A stretch of DNA of 64,000 nucleotides from an uncultured delta proteobacterium (GTDB taxonomy: Bacteria > Desulfobacterota > Syntrophia > Syntrophales > UBA2185): assembly GCA_963695875.1 (NCBI GenBank), contig CAVOID010000005.1, positions 150,484-214,483 on the forward strand, written 5' to 3'. Positions 8,383-20,289 of this stretch are shown here, in pieces. The translations under genes and the position numbers were made by a program. How positions within the stretch are numbered: position 1 is the stretch's first letter; every line of letters begins with the position of its first letter. The notes under the pieces are model-generated. The model was given only the letters and a program-made list of their open reading frames with translations, did not search any database and was not told the origin of the DNA.

Positions 8383-9783
8383 TTGGAGATGGAGAAGCGA
8401 TTATTGTTAAAAATAACCGGTGCCGGCAGAGCGGCTGTGATAACGGTGAGCCTCTTCATAACCCTGCTTGTTGTTGTGCCAAGAGTCACCGGAGACGAAC
8501 GGGCACTTTCCCTGACGGAAGCCATTGCGATTGCGCTGAAGGATAATCATGAGCTGAAGGCTTTCGGTTATGCACTCAGTGCCGAAGGCGAGAATGTCGG
8601 CATAGCCCGAAGCGCACTCCTCCCCCGTCTTTCTTTCGAAGAGCGTTACATGCGGACGAATAACCCGCCGGCTTCGTTTGCCGCAAAGCTCAACCAGCAG
8701 CGCTTCTCGCAGCAGGACTTTGCCATCGATACACTTAATAACCCCAGTCCGATTGACGACTACCAGACTTCTTTCCTTATTCAACAGCCCCTTTTCTCCC
8801 GGAAAGCCATGCTTGGTCTCGATATGTCAAGGGTTCAGCGGGAGGCCAGAGAGAAGGAATTTAGCCGCAAGAAGCAGGAGATCGTCTTCCACGTCGTCAA
8901 GACATTTCTTTCTGTGCAGACGGCGCGGGAGCATGTTTCGGCAGCTGACCGTGGTATAGAGGATGCCCTGGAGCACAAACGGATAGCGCAACTGCGCTAT
9001 GATACCGGTCTGGGTCTCTATTCCGATGTTTTGAGGACATCCACGGCGCTTGCCGAGGCACAGCAGAAACTCATCAGTGCAAATACTTCGCTAAATGTCT
9101 CCAGAAGGGCGCTGGGCTTGCTCCTCGGGCTTTCTGAGCCGGTCGGTGTCTCCACAGAACCAGTTGAACTTCCTGAGAGAACACTCGAGACCCATGTGCA
9201 GTTGTCGTCTTCACGAAATGACGTGAAGGCTGTCGAACTCTATGTTGAGAACGCGCGAAACAATGTCAGACTTACCGAGGCCGGTTATTTCCCGACAGTA
9301 AGCGTGGACGGCTCATACCAGTTCAACGACCACCGGCAGCCATTCGGCTCTGAAGGTGAAAGCTGGGCTGTGCAGGCTTTTCTTCGCTGGGAACTCTTTG
9401 ACGGCTTCAAGCGTGAAAAGGAACGGGCAAAGGCAAAATTCCAGGTTTCCCGTACAGAAGAACAGCTGGCGGCCCTCATAAAAGTTGTGTCATTCCAGGT
9501 CTACGAGGCATACCTTGGCGTGGAGGAGACCAGGAAAAACGTGGATCTTGCCGCATCGGCCCTCCGGACATCAGAAGAGGGTAAGCGCCTGGTGCAGATG
9601 AGATATAATGGCTCCCTCGCCCCGATCGTGGATCTTCTCGATGCCCAGTCAAACCTGGACCGCGCCAGGGCGGCGTATATTGTACGCCTGAACGATCACC
9701 GTCTTGCGCGCGCTCATTTAAGTTACCAGAGCGGCTCGCTGCTTGCGGATCTCGATATCGTACAGGAGAAGCCGGAGGAATGA
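8383..9783 (+). CDS. TolC-family outer membrane efflux protein
   Basis: LSLTEAIAIAL, LLPRLSF and DLLDAQ OEP motifs; first gene of an efflux operon. Confidence 0.9.
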   Translation: MEMEKRLLLKITGAGRAAVITVSLFITLLVVVPRVTGDERALSLTEAIAIALKDNHELKAFGYALSAEGENVGIARSALLPRLSFEERYMRTNNPPASFAAKLNQQRFSQQDFAIDTLNNPSPIDDYQTSFLIQQPLFSRKAMLGLDMSRVQREAREKEFSRKKQEIVFHVVKTFLSVQTAREHVSAADRGIEDALEHKRIAQLRYDTGLGLYSDVLRTSTALAEAQQKLISANTSLNVSRRALGLLLGLSEPVGVSTEPVELPERTLETHVQLSSSRNDVKAVELYVENARNNVRLTEAGYFPTVSVDGSYQFNDHRQPFGSEGESWAVQAFLRWELFDGFKREKERAKAKFQVSRTEEQLAALIKVVSFQVYEAYLGVEETRKNVDLAASALRTSEEGKRLVQMRYNGSLAPIVDLLDAQSNLDRARAAYIVRLNDHRLARAHLSYQSGSLLADLDIVQEKPEE

Positions 9784-9784
9784 A

Positions 9785-10930
9785 ATGAATGACCACATTT
9801 GCTTGAAGGAGAGAATGCAGAAGATGATGTTCCGGGCAGGAAGACGCTATGTCTCATTGTCAATGGCACTCATGAGTTTTATGGCCATGGCGATGTTTGT
9901 CGCGGGATGCGGTGAAAAGGTCTCACCGGGAACGGCAGCAGTGGAGCGCATACCCGTTTCAGGCGTTACCATCGCCGACATCAAGCCTTCACAAGTCGAT
10001 GATTACTATGAGACATCGGGAACGGTCAAAGCAAGGAATATCGGCGTCATTTCAAGCAAGACCATGGGAAGCATCACCTTTATTGCCGTCAAGGAAGGTG
10101 AGCAGGTGAAGAAGGGGCAGGTTCTGCTCACGATTGACGACCGTGATGTGGCCGAAAAGGTCAGGGCGGCTCAGAATGCGGTTGCCTCCGCACAGGAGCA
10201 AAAGAAATTGGCCGATGTAACCCTGGGACGCTACAAAAAGCTATATGATGAAAAAGCCCTCTCACGGCAGGAATTCGACCAGGTAGAAACTCAGAAGAAT
10301 GTGGCAGAAAGCGAGTACGAACGGGCAAAGGCGATTCTGAGGGAAGCGGAGGCCATACAGGGATATACCCGTGTGAGGGCGCCATTCTCAGGTATAGTCA
10401 CGGGCAAGAAGATTGACACTGGAAGCATGGCAGTTCCGGGCATGCAGCTTTTGACCGTCGAAGACACCTCTGCGTTTCTTGTCGAGGCCGCTATGGACGA
10501 AAGGCTTGCCGCGCACATTAAACCCGGTATTCCGGTAAATGTTGCGATTGACTCAATTAACAGGAACATGAATGGTCGGATCTCAGAGGTGGTACCCTCA
10601 ATCGACCCATCGACAAGAACATTCGTCGTCAAGATCACGGTGAGTGGGGCGGGGCTGAAAACAGGTCTCTATGCCAGGGTCAGAATCCCGACCGGCAGAC
10701 GGGAGGCGCTCACTGTGCCCGCCTCTTCAATTGTTGAAAAAGGCCAGCTCACGGGCGTATACGCCGTGGACGCGAAAGGGATCGTCGCTTACCGCCTTGT
10801 GCGCATCGGCAATAATTTCGGCAACAGCGTGGAAGTCCTTTCCGGGCTTGTTCCCGGAGACAGAATCATCGTCGCGGGACTGGAAAAGGCTGTAGACGGG
10901 GGCATCATGACCGAGACACAGGGTAAATGA
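9785..10930 (+). CDS. RND periplasmic adaptor (MFP) lipoprotein; start uncertain
   Basis: Lipobox FVAGC, VKEGEQVKKGQVL, RAPFSGIV, DPSTRTF, VLSGL. Confidence 0.9.
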   Translation: MNDHICLKERMQKMMFRAGRRYVSLSMALMSFMAMAMFVAGCGEKVSPGTAAVERIPVSGVTIADIKPSQVDDYYETSGTVKARNIGVISSKTMGSITFIAVKEGEQVKKGQVLLTIDDRDVAEKVRAAQNAVASAQEQKKLADVTLGRYKKLYDEKALSRQEFDQVETQKNVAESEYERAKAILREAEAIQGYTRVRAPFSGIVTGKKIDTGSMAVPGMQLLTVEDTSAFLVEAAMDERLAAHIKPGIPVNVAIDSINRNMNGRISEVVPSIDPSTRTFVVKITVSGAGLKTGLYARVRIPTGRREALTVPASSIVEKGQLTGVYAVDAKGIVAYRLVRIGNNFGNSVEVLSGLVPGDRIIVAGLEKAVDGGIMTETQGK

Positions 10931-10933
10931 CAA

Positions 10934-13900
10934 ATGGCAGATATCGGTATTTCGGGAAGAATTGCCAGGTCGTTTATCGTCTCCAAGCTGACGCCGCTGA
11001 TCGTTATCGCTTCCATATTGCTCGGCATTTTTTCCGTGATCGCTACACCGCGGGAAGAGGAACCGCAGATCCTTGTACCGATGATAGACGTCATGGTCAA
11101 TTACCCCGGTGCGTCGGCCGGAGAAGTTGAATCGCGCGTCACCCGCCCGATGGAGCAACTGCTCTGGGAAATCAAAGGAGTCGAATACATTTACTCCATT
11201 GCCAGACCCGGCTCGAATCTCACAATAGTAAGGTTCTACGTCGGTGAAAAGATGGAAGACAGCATCGTCAAGGTGTACAACAAGCTTATGTCGCACTATG
11301 ACATCATCCCGCCCGGCGTCTCGCAACCTCTTGTCAAACCAAAATCTATAGACGATGTTCCGATCCTCGCCCTTACCCTCTGGAGTGCGAGTGGCCGCTA
11401 TTCAGGTTATGATTTGCGGCGTATTGCTGCTGAACTTTCAAATGAAATAAAAAAAGACAAGGATGTTTCTGAATTCACACTCATCGGCGGCCAAAAGCGG
11501 CAGGTGCTGATCAGTATTGATCCCACGCGACTCAAGGCATACCGGATGTCGCCTGTGCATATCATCGGAGGTCTCCAAAAAGCAAATTTCATTCTGCCAT
11601 CCGGCTCATTCCCGAGCGGCAATAAAGAGTATCTCGTAGAAACGGGTGCCTTTCTCAAAAATGCCTCTGAAGTCGGCAATGTCGTAGTTGCGGCACAGAA
11701 CGGCAAGCCCGTTTATCTGCGTGATGTCGCGCGTATTACGGATGGACCTGAAGAACCGGACAACTATGTGTTTATGGGTCTCGGTCCCGCCGCCGTCCGG
11801 AAAGGGATTACGGTCTCAACACAGGGAGAGCATGAAGCTGTCACAATCGCCATAGCGAAAAAAAAGGGTGCCAATGCCAGCATTGTCGCACGGGAGGCCC
11901 TGAGAAAAGTTGAAGCCTTGCGCGGCCCGCTCTTACCCTCTGACGTGCAGGTCGCCATTACCCGCAACTATGGAGACACGGCGAAGGAGAAATCGGACGA
12001 ACTCCTCCAGCACATGTTGATCGCGACCATCTCAGTTGTCATACTTATTGCGCTTGCGCTCGGATGGCGCGAATCGGTCGTGGTGGCTGTGGCCGTGCCG
12101 GTAACGCTTGCCCTCACGTTGCTTACTAATTATCTTTACGGCTACACTCTCAACAGGGTAACCCTCTTTGCCCTCATCTTCTCCATCGGCATCCTGGTGG
12201 ATGATGCAATAGTCATCGTCGAAAATATACACCGTCATTTCAAGATGAACGGGGCTTCACCCGGGACAGCTGTGACCGCCGTCGATGAAGTAGGCAACCC
12301 CACGATCCTCGCTACCCTCGCGGTCATCGCCGCCCTTCTGCCCATGGCTTTCGTGTCCGGCCTCATGGGGCCTTACATGAGGCCTATACCTGTCGGGGCT
12401 TCGGCGGCTATGCTCTTTTCGCTCCTCGTGGCCTTTATCGTGAGTCCATGGCTCAGCTACAAGGTGTTGAAGAATGCGCCCATCGTTGATAGCGGAAGCG
12501 AGGGAAGAAGGCTCCACGAATTATACGATAGGGCGCTTCGTCCCCTCCTCGAACATAGGAGGCGCCGGCTCTTTACTTTTGGCGCAGTTATCTGCCTTCT
12601 CGGTCTGGCAGTGCTTCTCGTGCCTCTGAAAATGGTAACTGTCAAGATGCTTCCCTTTGACAACAAGAGCGAGCTGCAAATGATCATCGATATGCCGGAA
12701 GGAGTGGCAATGGAGCAGACTGCCGCACTCGTCCGGGAGCTGGGGGAATACTTGAAGACCGTCCCCGAAGTAACAGACTACCAGTCATACATCGGCACAG
12801 CGGCGCCTTACAATTTCAACGGCCTCGTGCGTCACTATTTTCTGCGCTCCGGCAGCAATGTCGCGGACATCCAGGTGAATTTCGTTGCCAAGGACAAACG
12901 AAAAGCACAGAGTCATGATATAGCAAAGCGCCTTCGCCCCGGGGTCGAGGCAATCGGCGGCCGCTATGGCGCCAGAATAAAGATAGCTGAAATCCCGCCG
13001 GGCCCGCCTGTTCTCGACACGCTCGTAGCCGAGATCTATGGTCCTGATCCGAAACGTCAGATTGGGATCGCCGGAGAGATTATGAATATCTTCCAGAGCA
13101 CGGCGGGCGTGGTGGATGTGGACTGGTATGTCGAGGCCGACCGAAAGAAAATTACGTTGGACGTTGACAGAGAAAAAGCAGCGCTCAACAGCATAAGCAC
13201 GGAGTCTGCGGCGCAGACCCTGATGATAGCGTTGAAAGGAACGGGGGTAGGTCTCGTCCATATGGAGCGCGAAAGGGAACCAGTTGAGCTCTTCATGCGT
13301 ATGCCCATTGCGCTGCGCGCCGACTTCGCATCGTTGAAGGAAGCCGCCGTTTTATCCCCGTCAGGATCGCTCATCCCCCTTTCCGAACTGGTAACCGTAA
13401 AAGAGGGTATCGAGGACAAGACCATTTACCACAAGAACCTGAAAAGAGTCACATACGTGATTGGTGATGTCGCGGGCGTCGAAGAGAGCCCTGTTTATGC
13501 AATCCTCAAGATGAGGGATAAAATCAAAAAACTGCGGCTCCCTGAAGGATATGAATTGCAGCAGTACTCTACCATCCAGCCCCCGCTCGAACAGCGCTAC
13601 TCGATGAAATGGGACGGGGAATGGCACATCACCTACGAAGTCTTCAGGGACCTCGGCGTCGCATTTGCTGCGGTACTCGTCCTCATCTATATACTTGTCG
13701 TCGCCTGGTTCCGGAATTTCTTGATCCCTCTTGTCATCATGGCGCCGATCCCCCTCACCCTGGTGGGCATCCTGCCCGGCCATTGGGCATTCGGTGCATT
13801 TTTCACCGCAACTTCCATGATCGGTTTCATAGCGCTTTCGGGAATAATTGTGAGGAATTCAATCCTGCTTGTCGACTTTGTCCAACTGGAATGTCGTGAA

Positions 13901-14161
13901 GAAGCTGACCTGAAGGATGCCGTAATAAGGGCGGGCGCGGTGCGCTTCAGGCCCATCGCGCTGACTGCGGCAGCGGTTGTTGTCGGCTCCTTCGTCATTC
14001 TCTTTGATCCCATCTTTCAGGGACTGGCTATCGCGATGATGTTCGGTGCTCTGGCGGCAACAGGCCTTACGCTCATCGTCGTGCCGTTGCTCTATTATGA
14101 AATTTTCAAAGACCGTCCTATTTCCGCTAAACAGGCAGGGAAGGACTTGCCGGTGCAGTAA
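10934..14161 (+). CDS. RND efflux transporter permease subunit
   Basis: 1075 aa; [30 protein letters not shown]. Confidence 0.95.
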
Positions 14162-14174
14162 AGGAGGTATCACC

Positions 14175-14399
14175 ATGTATATGGCAAACACCGAAAGCTG
14201 GTATCTTGAACGTGCGGTCTTTCTGATCGCGGGTACATTCACGCTTGCGAGCGCATTTCTCGCGTGGCTCCATAGCCTGTACTGGCTTATCTTCACAGCT
14301 CTGGTCGGCATCAATCTCATTATCCTCGCTCTCACAGGGTTCTGCGCAATGGCAAACCTTTTGTTGAAACTGGGATTTAAGCCGCGCCTGCAAAGATAA
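14175..14399 (+). CDS. DUF2892/YgaP-like small membrane protein
   Basis: AAGGAGG RBS; two TM helices and a GFC motif. Confidence 0.8.
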   Translation: MYMANTESWYLERAVFLIAGTFTLASAFLAWLHSLYWLIFTALVGINLIILALTGFCAMANLLLKLGFKPRLQR

Positions 14400-14719: not shown

Positions 14720-15196
14720 ATGCCAGGCGAAGAGAAGGACTTACTGGGAGAGTCCCTGACGGGCTATAAAGAAAAAATCGTTCCAATCACAAAGGCGACC
14801 CTGAAATGGGATAAGGACCTTATCTTTGTCGGCATGACCCAGCAGGGATATGAGATAGAATTCGATGCCCAGGCCCAATGGGGATGCAAACCGACAGAGG
14901 CGCTTCTTCTAAGTCTCGCTGGTTGCATGGGGATCGATGTGGTGATGTTCTTGCAGAAGATGAGGGTCCAACTGGCAAGTTTTAAGATTGAACTCGCGGG
15001 CGAGAGGAATCCGACACCTCCGCAGTATTTCAAAGCCATTGAAATGGTCTTCTACATCACAGGAAAGAGCCTTAATCCCGAAAAGGTTGATCGCGCCATA
15101 TCCTTGTCTCAGGCTAAGTATTGTTCTGTTTATAACTCCCTCCGCCGGGATCTGGAAATGAAAGTGCGATATGTGATAGAGGAGAAAGAACGTTGA
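14720..15196 (+). CDS. OsmC family protein
   Basis: PTEALLLSLAGCMG and KYCSV. Confidence 0.88.
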   Translation: MPGEEKDLLGESLTGYKEKIVPITKATLKWDKDLIFVGMTQQGYEIEFDAQAQWGCKPTEALLLSLAGCMGIDVVMFLQKMRVQLASFKIELAGERNPTPPQYFKAIEMVFYITGKSLNPEKVDRAISLSQAKYCSVYNSLRRDLEMKVRYVIEEKER

Positions 15197-15314: not shown

Positions 15315-16461
15315 TCAAACTCCATCCTGGATGTAATTGAAATCCAGTTTCATGGAAAGTTCCGCCTTTTCCAGTTCCTTCCCCAGATAGGCAGCATGAG
15401 AGAGCTGAGTAATCCAGCCTTTTTTTATGATTGTACGATACAGGCTCCTGGCATCTTTTCCTTCAACGACCCGAAGAAACCGGTTGTCATTGGTGTAGTG
15501 CTCGACCGAGATGATCCCTTTTCCTCGCATGGGAAGGATGACGAAGTATCCTGCCTTGTCCAGCTCCACCTTTGGTATTTCTTCCGCTTGAATGACTTCA
15601 ATAGGGGCAATGGTCAAAGGTTTCACGACTCGGGCAAATTCTTTCTTACCACAGGAAAGGTGCATCTTCTTGGCAAAGGACCTGACGTTTCCTGCCACAT
15701 GCTTGGCGTCCTCGCATCCGATCATATCGACGACCTTGACCTGGTTGCGGAAGGCCTCCACTTCTTCCCGTGTGACATTCTTCAGGACCGGCCGCCTGCC
15801 CGGCGACCCGATCACTCTCATGCTCTCATCTACACCACTTTCACACAGGGATAGAAGTGTGGCGCCGCTTCGGTGACCCTCGGGGTCTTTGCCGGCGACA
15901 ATCAGGATGTGTATGGAGGGGTTGGTGATTGTATTCTTGATAATCTTGTCAATGCCGATGTTTTCCGTTTCTGTCTTTCCGACGATGCAGAGATCCTTCG
16001 GTGCAAGACGGGCAAGTTCTCCTGCCAGGGAGATGCTTGACAGGGTGGAGACGGCAATATGGCAGGCCTGATTTTCACAGAGAACAAAATATTCGCCGGC
16101 CACGGGGGGCCAGGCAGCGGCCGTTACCTCAAGCTCGGCAACTGAGTGAAGCCGATTCCTCCATTCCGGGAAAGGCCTCAGGAAAAAGGTTCATCGCTAC
16201 CGCCGGGTAGCAGTGCTCGCATCCCAGTCAGGTATACATACTCTCCTCAGTTTTCCCGAGCCAGGCTTCCACCTTCTCCCGAAGATCGCGAGCATCCTGA
16301 TCCTTGGTGGCTGCCAGGTTGTCGCGGATTTCTTCCAATGCACCCTTCATGCAGCCGCACTTCCTGCACTTTGAAAGAGCGATGCCTTTTTCGAATTCGG
16401 ATGTCAGTGTTTCCAGTTTTTCGCCCGTGGATATGTTTGTGTCCTTCTTGTCCTTGCTCAT
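15315..16461 (-). CDS. Putative selenoprotein: Cys/Sec-rich N-domain + MtrA-like corrinoid domain + DUF4346 (UGA at 16230-16228; +1 frameshift at about 16137)
   Basis: Joins ORFs 16228..16461 and 15315..16103 and reads CRKCGC...MYT-U-LGCEHCYPA. MtrA motifs: WPPVAGEY, TENIGIDK, NPSI, GH. DUF4346 motifs: DKAGYF...HAAYLGKEL. Confidence 0.75.
16196..16211 (-). promoter_or_regulatory. Candidate bacterial SECIS hairpin
   Basis: GCTACC-CGGC-GGTAGC; the loop begins 22 nt after the UGA and has G at its second position. Confidence 0.6.
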
Positions 16462-16464
16462 TAT

Positions 16465-16680
16465 TTAGGTTTTCTCTTTCTTTAGCTTTTCAATTTCTTC
16501 CTTGAGTTCCCGCATCTCCTTCCTCAATTCATCCACTTCATCGTAGCTCCTGCCACGGCAAAAGAATCCGCGGCCACCGAAGAACTGGGCGAGAACGAAA
16601 AGTACCACAATCATGAAAATCAGGCCCATCAACGGAAACATGAACCATCCACCCCACATCGGAGGACCATTCCACCACAT
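16465..16680 (-). CDS. Small Trp-rich single-pass membrane protein with C-terminal coiled coil
   Basis: AAGGAGG RBS; TM segment, GGRGFFC, ELRKEMRELKEE; paralog at 38711-38936. Confidence 0.75.
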   Translation of the reverse strand: MWWNGPPMWGGWFMFPLMGLIFMIVVLFVLAQFFGGRGFFCRGRSYDEVDELRKEMRELKEEIEKLKKEKT

Positions 16681-16944: not shown

Positions 16945-19900
16945 TTATTCTTCGACTGCGAGGCTCAATTGTCCGTCTAAAGTTCGTGACCGTGGCACCT
17001 TCGGGGCTTCTCGTGCAGAAGCCGGCACAGGGGGAAGTTCCGACGCGGTGAAAAGCTCACTATCAAGAACGGCTTCAAGAAGCCGTTTCTGTTTCGCATA
17101 CCCTGCCGTTGTATGCTCCAGGACCCAGAGCAATTCCAGAAGTTCTCGTGGTAAACTCGCGTGTCCAGACGCGAGGCCGGATATCGTCAAGGGGCGATGA
17201 CTTTCTTCCCGCTCCGCTCCCTCATGCGATAGCCCAGCCATGACTGCAATACTTTCAGACCCGATACTTCAAACTCCCATACCTCGAGACGACACCGGGG
17301 CAAAAACGCCGTCGCCGACATAGAGCTTCTTGCCGGTGTCTTCATAATAAAATTCATTCGGATACTTGTCTTCCTGATCGGAAACGGCCTTTATGCATTG
17401 AGCCTTGCCCTTCGGTATCTGTCCTGCCGGATGGTCGGCGTCGTGCAATCGTTCGCCATAGGTATGCAGCCAGATCAATTCTTTGCCGAACTCCGATACC
17501 TTCGCAAAGAGTTTTTTGTCTTTCGTCAGAGGAACGCGCACTTCCTTGCTTGCAAGCTCGTCTGAGCAAATCGCCGCGTATATTCAGGCTGGGCCAAAAC
17601 ACCGTAAACATAACCAGCAAAATCTTCCGGCGTTACTGTTCGGCCAAATGATGTGCTTAGCATGTCCAAGCAAGCCAGGCAATATGTTCGGCTGTAGTGC
17701 ATTCGCGTCACGATAAAGTGGCATGATCTCTTTAGCTCCAACTGATCCGCGAAAATGATGAAGGTCAGGGATATTTGCACTACACATGTCATTGCTGGAC
17801 CATCGCCAAGTGGATGATTGAACATAGCTTGATAGATATATTTGCTCGTTCACCATGTGCACCTGCCATAGCGGCGGGTCGCGGGCGTCGAAATCAGCGA
17901 TCATCAGCAAGCAATATACTGTCGATCAAAAGAACGATAATGCATATCTGAACGATTTTATGTATTGGTTCATCTTGAGCCAATAACTTTATTGCGCTTG
18001 AGTTCTATACTCATCGTCAAATATGGTCTGCTGCTTCAAAGCAATTGTTCTGATCGCCGACTCTCCTTCATAGAGTTCTGCACGATTCAGTAGACCTCGA
18101 GGAGCGCCTTCCAACGACTCTTCCAGAACATCTTTCGATGGTGCCACTGGCCAAGTACGTTTAGCTTTGAACACCGTTATTTTGCCACGGAAACAAATCT
18201 GTAAAGCTCGGCCACTCGTGCAAAGTCACTTGTTGACAACAGGTCTGAACGGCGCCTGCCAATCATCCGGGTACAGATCTCCCATTTCAGAGCACTACTC
18301 GATTTTACAGAATCAAGGGCTTCGAGCTTTTTCTCTCGTGTCCCTTCAATGCGCGTATATCGGACAACAGCCGGAGTATCGGGATTCGGCTTTGCTTTGC
18401 GCCACGCCACGAAGATTGCCACCGGCGTCTGAATGGCAAAGACATTTTCATCCTTCCGTGTCCCGCGTCCTTCCCCTCCCAGGTCGATGATATCTATATG
18501 ATCGCAGATCCTGCGCATGTGCTCGCGGACGCCGACAAAGGCGTCACCGTCGAGATAGGACGATGCGGTGATGAAGGACAGGATGCCGGGGCCTGTAGCG
18601 GTCTTGTGCTCGAATACTTTCCAGAGGGACCAGCGGATGAAATAGACATAGAGGTTGTAAAGGTTCTTGAGATGGACGCCATAACCGGCTGTGCGGGCAG
18701 GTTTCAAGAAATCTTCAAGAATCGCAGAAGCTTCGTATTTCTCATCACCATAACGCACCCAGCCGCCGGTGATTGCCTTATTATCTCCGCTGCTCGCTTC
18801 ATGCCGACCATAGGGCGGATTACCGAGACACACAAGGACATGTTCTGCGTCCTTGATCTTGAGCGCCCGTTCGTGTTCCTGCGCTATGGGCTTGTGAAAC
18901 AGCGGCGGCGCAGGCGGGTCGTGTGAGGAGATTCAAGGGTGTTCGTGAGATAGATACCAGGACCGGTGGAAGGCAGAGATGATGCCCTGCTTGCTTAGGG
19001 CCTGCGAGAAACGCAGTTGCGCGACGGCGTACGGGCCGACCATCCATTCAAAGCCGTGGAGGTTATGGACCAGCGAACGAGCGCCGCCTTTTACCGCTCC
19101 CGGGCCTTCCTCCTTTTCCACCCGTGCAAGGGCATGATCGACAATACCAAGAAGATAGGTTCCGGTTCCGACCGCCGGATCAAGCGTTGAAACTCCGGCC
19201 TCAACAAATCCCATATCTTTACCAAGGTGCTTTTGCAGGATTTCGTCTATCAGCCGCACCTGACAACGGACGACTTCAAGCGGAGTAAAGTAAATGCCCG
19301 CCTCTTTGCGTAATTTAGGATCGTAGCTTGCAAGAAAGTCCTCATAGAAAAAAAGCCACGGATCTTTTGTCGCCGATGTCGCCTTGAGCAGATCAGGTGG
19401 TATCTCGTGGATAACACGCTGTGTCATGCTGAGGGATGCGCTGATTTCCTTCCTTGCTTCCTTGTCGGTCAGGAATTCGAGCGATCGGGAAAGCAGCGAG
19501 TGATGATGTTCGAGCGTGTCGTAAGTCTTACGAAGGTCAAGAACATCCGCGCCTTCCATCTGCCCCAGCAGCAAGGCAAAGATGACCGTTTGGGCGTAGG
19601 CGTCGGCAAATTGCTCATCGTTTGCGTCAGGGAAAAGGAGCGCCTTGATCTCAGTCTTGAGCGAGTGCATGGGCGAGGCAGTATCTTCGAGAGAGTCCAA
19701 GACCTCCTCGCGGATAAGGCGGCAGAAGGGAGCAAGGAAAGCAGCAAGCTCTTTCGGCTTCCTCGGGTACAATCGGCGTCCAGGTCGTAAAATCAGCAAA
19801 GAGCTGAAAAAGGTCTCTCGCGTTTGCTTCTGAGACAGCGTCCTTTCTGTCTGTGCGGATGTCTCCTGCAAAGCGGATGCGCTTTGCGAACAAGTCTCCA

Positions 19901-20289
19901 TTCCGGTATAACGCCCATTCGTTGCCGTCGGTATAGATAAGGTTTGGTACGTTCCGGAAACGTTTCCACTGGTCCCTGTCATGTCCCTTGAAAAGCTCCG
20001 GGTTCGCTCCCTTTCCGGGCGCCTTCAATTCAATGTAGCCGACAGGCAGGGTATCAATATGAGCCGCGAAATCAGGACGGCCCAACCTGCTGTGAAGGGT
20101 TGACTCTCCTTTCAGAACGATATTGCGGGAAACGATTTTGCCGTAAGCGGCGAAAAGCTGGTCAACGGGAGATTTGAGCTGATCTTCCGGCTCGCCGGAC
20201 GACCTCGCTGAAAACTTGGCCGTCAGCGATTGGGCAAAGACCTGCAAAGGCGCGTACATCTTTTCTTGTGGCGTAATGTTCTTGGGCAT
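16945..20289 (-). pseudogene. Single-polypeptide restriction-modification enzyme (type IIG/ISP-like N6-adenine MTase), multiply frameshifted
   Basis: Collinear fragments: RPDF...YIELKAPG nuclease motif, GIYFTP, LDPAVGTGTY (motif I), GNPPY (motif IV), LKNLYNLYVYF, and C-terminal specificity-domain pieces (ELIWLHTYGER, ELLELLWVLE). Confidence 0.85.

Follow-up and report, generated by a model that had tools for sequence, protein, structure and literature searches.

Bacterial selenoproteins that carry a SECIS element within the open reading frame, and that have homologs with cysteine in place of selenocysteine (Sec), are a well-known kind of feature; the family described here is an added member of that kind. 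A 2026 review (PMC13188914) lists 119 prokaryotic selenoprotein families or subfamilies in its Table 1. HgcA, for which Sec forms are given, is the sole corrinoid protein in that table, which also includes an experimentally verified Sec form of ArsM. The bacterial SECIS model in the legend to Fig. 2 of the same review has a loop of 3-9 nt with a G within its first two nucleotides, a stem of 4-16 bp, a distance of 16-37 nt from the UGA and a minimum free energy (MFE) of -7.5 kcal/mol or lower. [quoted passage not shown] According to PMC4915002, the cobalt ligand in MtrA is His84, which is in turn held by Glu54, and bacterial MtrA homologues mostly keep His84.

We analyzed a gene in a 64,000-nt stretch of DNA from an uncultured Syntrophales bacterium (hereafter the window, with positions counted from its first nucleotide). 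An initial annotation, made from the letters of this stretch, had proposed a hidden selenoprotein beginning with a 77-aa ORF that ends at TGA 16230-16228; this ORF lies on the minus strand at 16461..16228, with its ATG at 16461 (Table 1). The frame is indeed open beyond the TGA, where the translation continues LGCEHCYPAVAMN. Read through, it gives ...MYT-U-LGCEHCYPAVAMNLFPEAFPGMEESASLSC, then RA and a second TGA, a stop 33 codons past U, and the product contains the motifs C32-x2-C35-x-C37 and U78-x2-C81-x2-C84. A second frame, +1 relative to the first, is open from 16178 to a stop at 15317-15315 and holds the MtrA and DUF4346 domains, with Pfam scores of 115.4 bits for PF04208 (cut-off 25) and 79.1 bits for PF14251 (cut-off 29.6). 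An intact counterpart of the window gene, 92% identical, is present in a metagenome locus (L003:61-1203), and in this locus and another (L082) the end of the gene for a 71-aa protein precedes the target as it does in the window. The product would be one cytoplasmic selenoprotein of about 381 residues.

Table 1. Features of the selenoprotein candidate gene and its neighbours in the window.
Feature	Position	Strand	Basis or remark
Whole gene	15315..16461	-	about 381 codons with UGA decoded as Sec, leaving out the extra base at 16136-16138
N-domain start, 77 codons	16231..16461	-	holds first Cys triad KCRKCGC (C32, C35, C37)
In-frame UGA, proposed U78 of U-x-x-C-x-x-C	16228..16230	-	TGA/Cys alternation among homologs
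SECIS-like hairpin with two outer pairs	16192..16215	-	folding and comparison with relatives
Hairpin parts	5' arm 16212-16206; loop CGGC 16205-16202; 3' arm 16201-16195	-	folding
One-base insertion site, tgCCGag, shifting the frame	16136..16138	-	L003, L082 and public contigs
MtrA-type corrinoid-binding domain	15666..16121	-	Pfam PF04208, E 2.8e-33; PDB 5l8x/5laa, E ~1e-36
His codon equivalent to MtrA His84	15875-15873	-	alignment with solved MtrA
DUF4346 domain, C-terminal	15324..15563	-	PF14251, E 4.2e-22
71-aa membrane/coiled-coil protein, upstream	16465..16680	-	stop 3 nt before target ATG
RND efflux operon (OEP, HlyD/CusB-type, AcrB-type)	8383..14161	+	convergent with target
OsmC-like protein	14720..15196	+	convergent neighbour

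Homologs alternate between Cys and TGA at this codon, and the fused homologs that the initial annotation had proposed to look for occur in metagenome and genome loci alike. We retrieved 80 metagenome loci containing a relative of the gene and translated them in frame upstream of the match. The motif was present in 74, with TGA in 10 and Cys in 64, and the remaining six had no readable N-domain. Among 79 species-genome loci, 73 contained the motif and 10 of these carried TGA: three Syntrophaceae MAGs and seven Bacillota, including Sedimentibacter saalensis DSM 13558. The flanks are conserved across the alternation (...WLGKTEESLYT-U-LGC[EKR]HC[YH]PAVA in the Sec form versus ...MEPIKYA-C-LGCEYCFPAVA in the Cys form), and the stop at the Sec site is TGA in all 20 stop-bearing loci from the two sets. 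Reads with TGC or TGT at this codon had been named as a refuting observation; the contigs of two public runs that cover the codon (X1 and X3) list no difference at the TGA.

Databases present the Sec form as two genes. At the S. saalensis locus, GenBank and RefSeq give a 66-aa hypothetical protein and a DUF4346 protein of 258-303 aa. When we searched 1.84 billion cluster representatives with the N-domain (HMMER), we obtained 156 matches; among the best 150 of these, 19 end exactly one residue before the Sec codon, two end just after the Cys, 118 extend past the Sec codon and the remaining 11 are fragments of other kinds. In one database product of 370 aa the Sec site is W, as would result from TGA read as Trp. 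Annotation pipelines thus routinely cut the Sec-form gene in two.

These annotations correspond to a reading in which the UGA is a true stop between two genes, one for a 77-aa Cys-rich peptide and one for an MtrA/DUF4346 protein of about 290 aa; the split at the S. saalensis locus agrees with it, as do the 292-aa products that gene callers report for the nearest relatives. We consider a true stop highly improbable, because conservation extends over the codons from the TGA to the first ATG (LGC..C.PAVA), which can be aligned with the Cys forms, the TGA itself aligns with a Cys that is invariant among 62 aligned sequences, no other stop codon is used in the 20 loci, a structured hairpin follows the codon and the genome uses Sec. 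On this comparative evidence, the window TGA almost certainly encodes selenocysteine, which would mean that catalogues and annotators have overlooked a selenoprotein in this MtrA/DUF4346 corrinoid-type protein.

We built a quick FastTree tree from 118 distinct rows to see how the Sec forms are distributed. All 15 Sec rows fall into two clades supported at 100 apiece, which group together with two Cys rows at a node with support 89; this quick tree would be compatible with either one or two origins of the Sec form. Among 60 relatives, a search with the read-through N-domain gave no match and a PF04208 search found the gene in just one. Close kin are therefore unusable for comparison.

The hairpin GCTACC-CGGC-GGTAGC, described earlier with its loop 22 nt past the UGA, was recovered as a 7-bp stem at a spacing of 22 nt. 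With a 4-nt loop, a G within the first two loop nucleotides and an energy of -10.7 to -12.8 kcal/mol, it falls within the SECIS model of PMC13188914 (Fig. 2 legend) in loop, stem, spacing and MFE. Its energy is no better than chance in this G+C-rich stretch (z = -0.45, with 62 of 200 shuffles folding at least as well), and the weight of the hairpin therefore rests on comparison with relatives. All seven stem pairs are kept in 13 of 14 Syntrophales-type Sec sequences, and six of seven in the other, versus seven of seven in just one of 113 distinct Cys-form sequences. The codons for C-Y-P-A-V-A are almost palindromic by themselves, so the peptide dictates part of the hairpin; even among the 45 Cys forms that share this peptide (C[YFH]PAVA), just one has the full stem and 15 have six of the seven pairs.

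One stem pair varies among the Sec forms: the window has U-A, L086 and L088 have U.G, and L004-L007 have C-G. An exception to intact pairing is an A.G stem mismatch in L003 and in the X1 and X3 contigs (16199 A>C), all of which keep the TGA. The Bacillota Sec forms have another hairpin, CUGCU-GGUC-AGCAG, located 19 nt past the UGA over a different peptide (CWSAD...), with four or five of its five pairs kept in all seven sequences. A scan of the window hairpin region against Rfam reached no family's gathering score and returned chance-level matches only (best JUMPstart, E 1.3). At the level of sequence, the comparison among Sec and Cys forms settles the hairpin as a SECIS-like element.

Whether the genome contains sel genes had been posed as a check, and selA, selB, a Sec-type selD and tRNA-Sec were all found. 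The selB match consists of two adjacent pieces, neither of which reaches the cut-off of 242 bits (207 and 164 bits), and an extra G in a GGGG run splits the gene into two frames (G000:C9:79843-81742, outside the window). The selD gene has one in-frame TGA (G000:C5:126708-127637, about 23 kb before the window), and the selenophosphate synthetase is therefore itself a selenoprotein. Taken with the comparative evidence, we infer that the UGA of the target would be decoded as Sec by SelB and tRNA-Sec, with the hairpin downstream as guide.

The initial annotation had also noted that removing one base near 16137 rejoins the frame of the MtrA domain. Comparison with relatives bears this out: the window reads TGCCGAG where L003 reads TGCCAG and L082 reads TGCGAG, so that it has one base too many exactly where two alleles differ (CAG vs GAG). 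Sequence data at this position, which had been proposed as a check, were available as contigs from three public runs (X1, X2 and X3, from three studies); one base is missing at 16136 from all three contigs that span the site, and the X2 contig (record 10) is apart from this base identical to the window over 257 nt. The nearest database proteins are 292 aa long, 65-89% identical and start MNLF... at the ATG that comes shortly after the TGA; in them the first frame runs directly into the second (...SLSC-ELE...). The frameshift is probably an assembly error, and would otherwise reflect strain-specific inactivation. Since the contigs come from other samples, they place the natural gene in frame, yet leave room for a frameshift of the source strain's own.

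Such a true pseudogene, in which the family is a selenoprotein and this copy was inactivated by a real one-base insertion, would account for the presence of the extra base in the assembly, and it would suit an accessory gene (just one of the 60 relatives searched has it) that adjoins a broken restriction-modification gene. We judge it unlikely given that the base is absent from every public contig over the site, one of them otherwise identical, and that the insertion falls at an allele difference, as expected of a consensus error. The same assembly also frameshifts selB, a gene required by the organism given the TGA in its selD, and no further damage is visible across the 1.1-kb gene. Programmed frameshifting was rejected because relatives and public contigs are plainly in frame. 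The earlier claim of a Cys/Sec domain fused to MtrA and DUF4346 domains thus holds as a description of the architecture; the 'fusion' requires no special event, as the frameshift is likely an assembly error.

The genome assembly comprises 16 contigs and is 82.6% complete. The selB indel is the second indel seen in it, and indels of this kind may partly account for that completeness value.

The read-through protein would consist of three parts: a helical N-domain of about 100 residues with two thiol triads, C-x2-C-x-C and U-x2-C-x2-C; a middle MtrA-type Rossmann domain with the His/Glu pair that in MtrA holds the cobalamin cobalt; and the C-terminal DUF4346 domain. Across 62 aligned sequences, namely the intact Sec form (L003:61-1203) and 61 full-length Cys forms, the invariant positions are C32, C37, C78 (the Sec site), C81, C84, C128, C133, C158, E166 and G195-H196, and C35 is conserved in at least 90%. 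A profile of the family matched MtrA structures in the PDB (5L8X, 5LAA) over residues 107-253 (E ~1e-36; PDB E 2e-36). The GH histidine, which had been reported as retained, is H196; it aligns with the GH of solved MtrA, and E166 aligns with TEN of 5l8x, residues that by count along the 5l8x chain are His84 and Glu54. Invariance of this His and Glu pair in 62 sequences suggests working corrinoid chemistry.

Consistent with these assignments, the predicted structure of the whole protein (pLDDT 70) had MtrA as its sole match, at a Foldseek probability of 1.00. Predicted alone, the N-domain is a small helical bundle (pLDDT 92.3). Structure searches with it found no solved relative, the best hits being generic helical bundles (best Foldseek E 1.9, best VIA Z 6.0), and an ESM Atlas look-up gave no usable match; this lack of a structural match to a predicted model does not show that the fold is new. 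The N-domain occurs almost exclusively with MtrA. The membrane anchor of MtrA is absent, with the DUF4346 domain in its place. The genome has one MtrA-like copy. These results uphold, on sequence grounds, the view of a Sec/Cys-alternating corrinoid-type protein with a Cys-rich N-domain, an MtrA-type domain and DUF4346.

Some family members carry additional N-terminal domains. One variant (P0128) has an ArsR-type HTH fused to the family protein, and three others (P0123, P0127 and P0174) have a 4-TM Cys-rich domain that contains a GCCGSP motif, together with a CC-rich linker.

The gene had been placed in a metal(loid)-resistance region, and within 15 kb of it we identified a Metal_resist/LTXXQ protein, a chromate transporter, an ArsR regulator and an ArsP-type permease. 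The initial annotation had seen no other mtr genes in the window; MtrH was not found in the genome as sequenced. We examined the neighbours of 41 genome loci, two ORFs on each side. At least one of ArsR, P-type ATPase, CDF, RND, ACR3, ArsM, ArsP and ArsD lies within two ORFs in 20 of the 41, a raw tally without a background frequency; ArsR was found at 10 loci, P-type ATPases at six, and CDF, RND parts, ACR3 and ArsM at two each. The ArsM matches, in L116 and L137, score above the NCBIfam cut-off. Gene order is arsR, Sec-form gene, arsM, arsD, arsA, acr3, arsR in L137 and arsR, gene, acr3 in L144. Some of 14 metagenome loci have RND parts, P-type ATPases, CDF or a MacB-type ABC exporter. We read the gene as an accessory one, patchily distributed and probably belonging to ArsR-linked metal(loid)-resistance clusters.

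Two observations count against a metal role. In a large Nitrospirota-type clade the gene sits before parA-parB instead, and some neighbours suggest sulfur and not metal (rhodanese, TauE and PLP-dependent enzymes of the PALP family). OsmC is close to homologs in L013 and L105 as well as in the window.

Several further features of these neighbourhoods deserve mention in their own right. The L137 locus (L137:2231-9278, a Clostridium sp. MAG) is a complete ars operon in which the Sec-form gene comes second; its arsM ORF ends at 210 aa, covering profile positions 4-203 of 272, and possibly corresponds to the Sec-containing ArsM already known. The gene immediately downstream of a Cys form (L087:7125-7808) matches the NCBIfam model for the MduS selenoprotein methyltransferase at 299.5 bits, below its cut-off of 380; by this match, other selenoprotein-prone families therefore share these operons. 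The window itself encodes a CoA-disulfide-reductase-like protein fused to rhodanese (972-2663) and a YgaP-like membrane protein (14046-14399), which hint that the island handles reactive sulfur as well as metals. Directly upstream of the gene for the 71-aa protein (16465-16680), five ORF pieces on the minus strand at 16945-19982 (98, 90, 108, 218 and 349 aa), with Eco57I and N6_Mtase matches, represent a broken type IIG-like restriction-modification gene.

Overall, it is quite probable that the gene encodes one cytoplasmic, Sec-decoded MtrA/DUF4346 protein, whose likely role is linked to metal(loid)s. What that role consists of can be proposed more tentatively. From the domains and the gene neighbourhood, the ligand of the Sec/Cys triads could be either a thiol or a soft metal(loid) (As(III), for example), to or from which the neighbouring corrinoid would move a methyl group. 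Counter to methyl transfer, no methyl-donor enzyme was identified, and MtrH was not found in the 82.6% complete genome; counter to arsenic methylation, arsM adjoins the gene in L116 and L137, where a second arsenite methylase would be redundant. A more specific proposal, by analogy, is that the family is a cobalamin-dependent, SAM-independent methylase or demethylase acting on As or another soft metal(loid) held on the Sec/Cys triad, an ArsR-controlled counterpart of HgcA built on the MtrA fold. This is doubtful as it stands. Such an enzyme might for example serve as an anaerobic methylarsenite demethylase, of which we know of no description.

Corrinoid methyl carriers require reductive reactivation, and in the corrinoid iron-sulfur protein an N-terminal [4Fe-4S] domain keeps the corrinoid in its active Co(I) state. 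By the same logic, the N-domain could be a metal-cluster (e.g., Fe-S) module for electron entry that keeps the corrinoid as Co(I), with a small molecule bound elsewhere as the acceptor. Six conserved Cys/Sec residues in two clusters within a compact helical domain would suit such a module, as would the need of methyl carriers for reactivation, and Table 1 of PMC13188914 includes predicted selenoproteins with Sec in Fe-S-type motifs. We nevertheless think this role rather unlikely: the spacing C-x2-C-x-C ... C-x2-C-x2-C fits no Pfam Fe-S model at E <= 1, the structure searches yielded no solved relative for the domain, and the metal-resistance context and ArsR fusion suit a metal-binding site at least equally well.

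The ArsR association also bears on whether the protein is an enzyme at all. Metallochaperones with thiol triads (ArsD) are found in ars operons, and the protein could be a sensor or buffer that binds metal(loid) or corrinoid and signals or sequesters, for example as a partner of ArsR. The fusion to an ArsR-type HTH in P0128, the ArsR genes directly upstream at several loci, the ArsD precedent and the arsD gene in L137 are all in keeping with this. Against these stand the invariance of the cobalamin-holding His and Glu in 62 sequences and the fact that a lone ArsR fusion may represent a lost stop between adjacent genes, and a sensor or buffer appears improbable to us.

The initial annotation held that this is not a described selenoprotein family. 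In agreement, Table 1 of PMC13188914 has no MtrA, DUF4346 or methanopterin entry, although the supplements of the review could list the family. The text of BSepDB and one of its supplements, a 2022 selenoprotein review and deep-Sep, in the parts available to us, do not mention it. Literature searches combining selenoprotein or selenocysteine with MtrA, MtrA-like corrinoid proteins, or MtrA and the ars operon returned nothing relevant in the text covered, and we found no paper on DUF4346 in the literature searched.

The family would add to the catalogue of selenoproteins, where it would be the second corrinoid selenoprotein in the table of PMC13188914 after HgcA. Its distribution is wide: the scan of species genomes yielded 577 confirmed stretches. 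The Sec form is present in a cultured and non-pathogenic anaerobe, S. saalensis DSM 13558, so selenium incorporation, B12 binding and an arsenic or metal role are directly testable. If the metal link is true, the family would represent a B12-based branch of metal(loid) biochemistry beyond mercury methylation.

The locus shares with known bacterial selenoproteins that have an in-ORF SECIS a UGA aligned to Cys, a U-x-x-C motif, a 3' hairpin and the sel genes; it differs in that Sec insertion is here proposed from sequence and in that the family lies outside Table 1 of PMC13188914. With MtrA and the cytoplasmic MtrA homologues of methanogens (PF04208; 5L8X, 5LAA) it has in common the corrinoid Rossmann domain and the equivalents of His84 and Glu54. 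Methanogen MtrA has a membrane anchor and MtrH as its partner, whereas the window protein is unanchored, adds the Cys/Sec N-domain and DUF4346, and is encoded in a bacterial genome in which MtrH was not found, beside metal-resistance instead of methanogenesis genes. An existing NCBIfam model, NF002128 (PRK00964.1-6, 'tetrahydromethanopterin S-methyltransferase subunit A'), spans all three domains (positions 10-370 of 390). It scores 387.5 bits for L003 and 433.6 bits for P0043, both below its curated cut-off of 568; its name reflects homology only, and it is silent on Sec.

HgcA, the mercury-methylating corrinoid protein, resembles the family in its corrinoid role, Sec variants, ArsR-type regulators and link to arsenic or metal stress. 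For the likeness to HgcA drawn in the initial annotation, the ArsR genes beside the family and the hgcAB preprint lend support of an indirect kind only. The corrinoid fold of HgcA is of the CFeSP type, unrelated to the MtrA type here, and the proposed Sec position differs. HgcA has HgcB as its partner, whereas no HgcB-like partner was seen for the window gene, for whose product methylation is a proposal only. ArsM provides a precedent for Sec in a metalloid-handling methyltransferase. It is SAM-dependent, with a Rossmann methyltransferase fold and no sequence relation to the window protein, in which the methyl carrier would be a corrinoid, not SAM.
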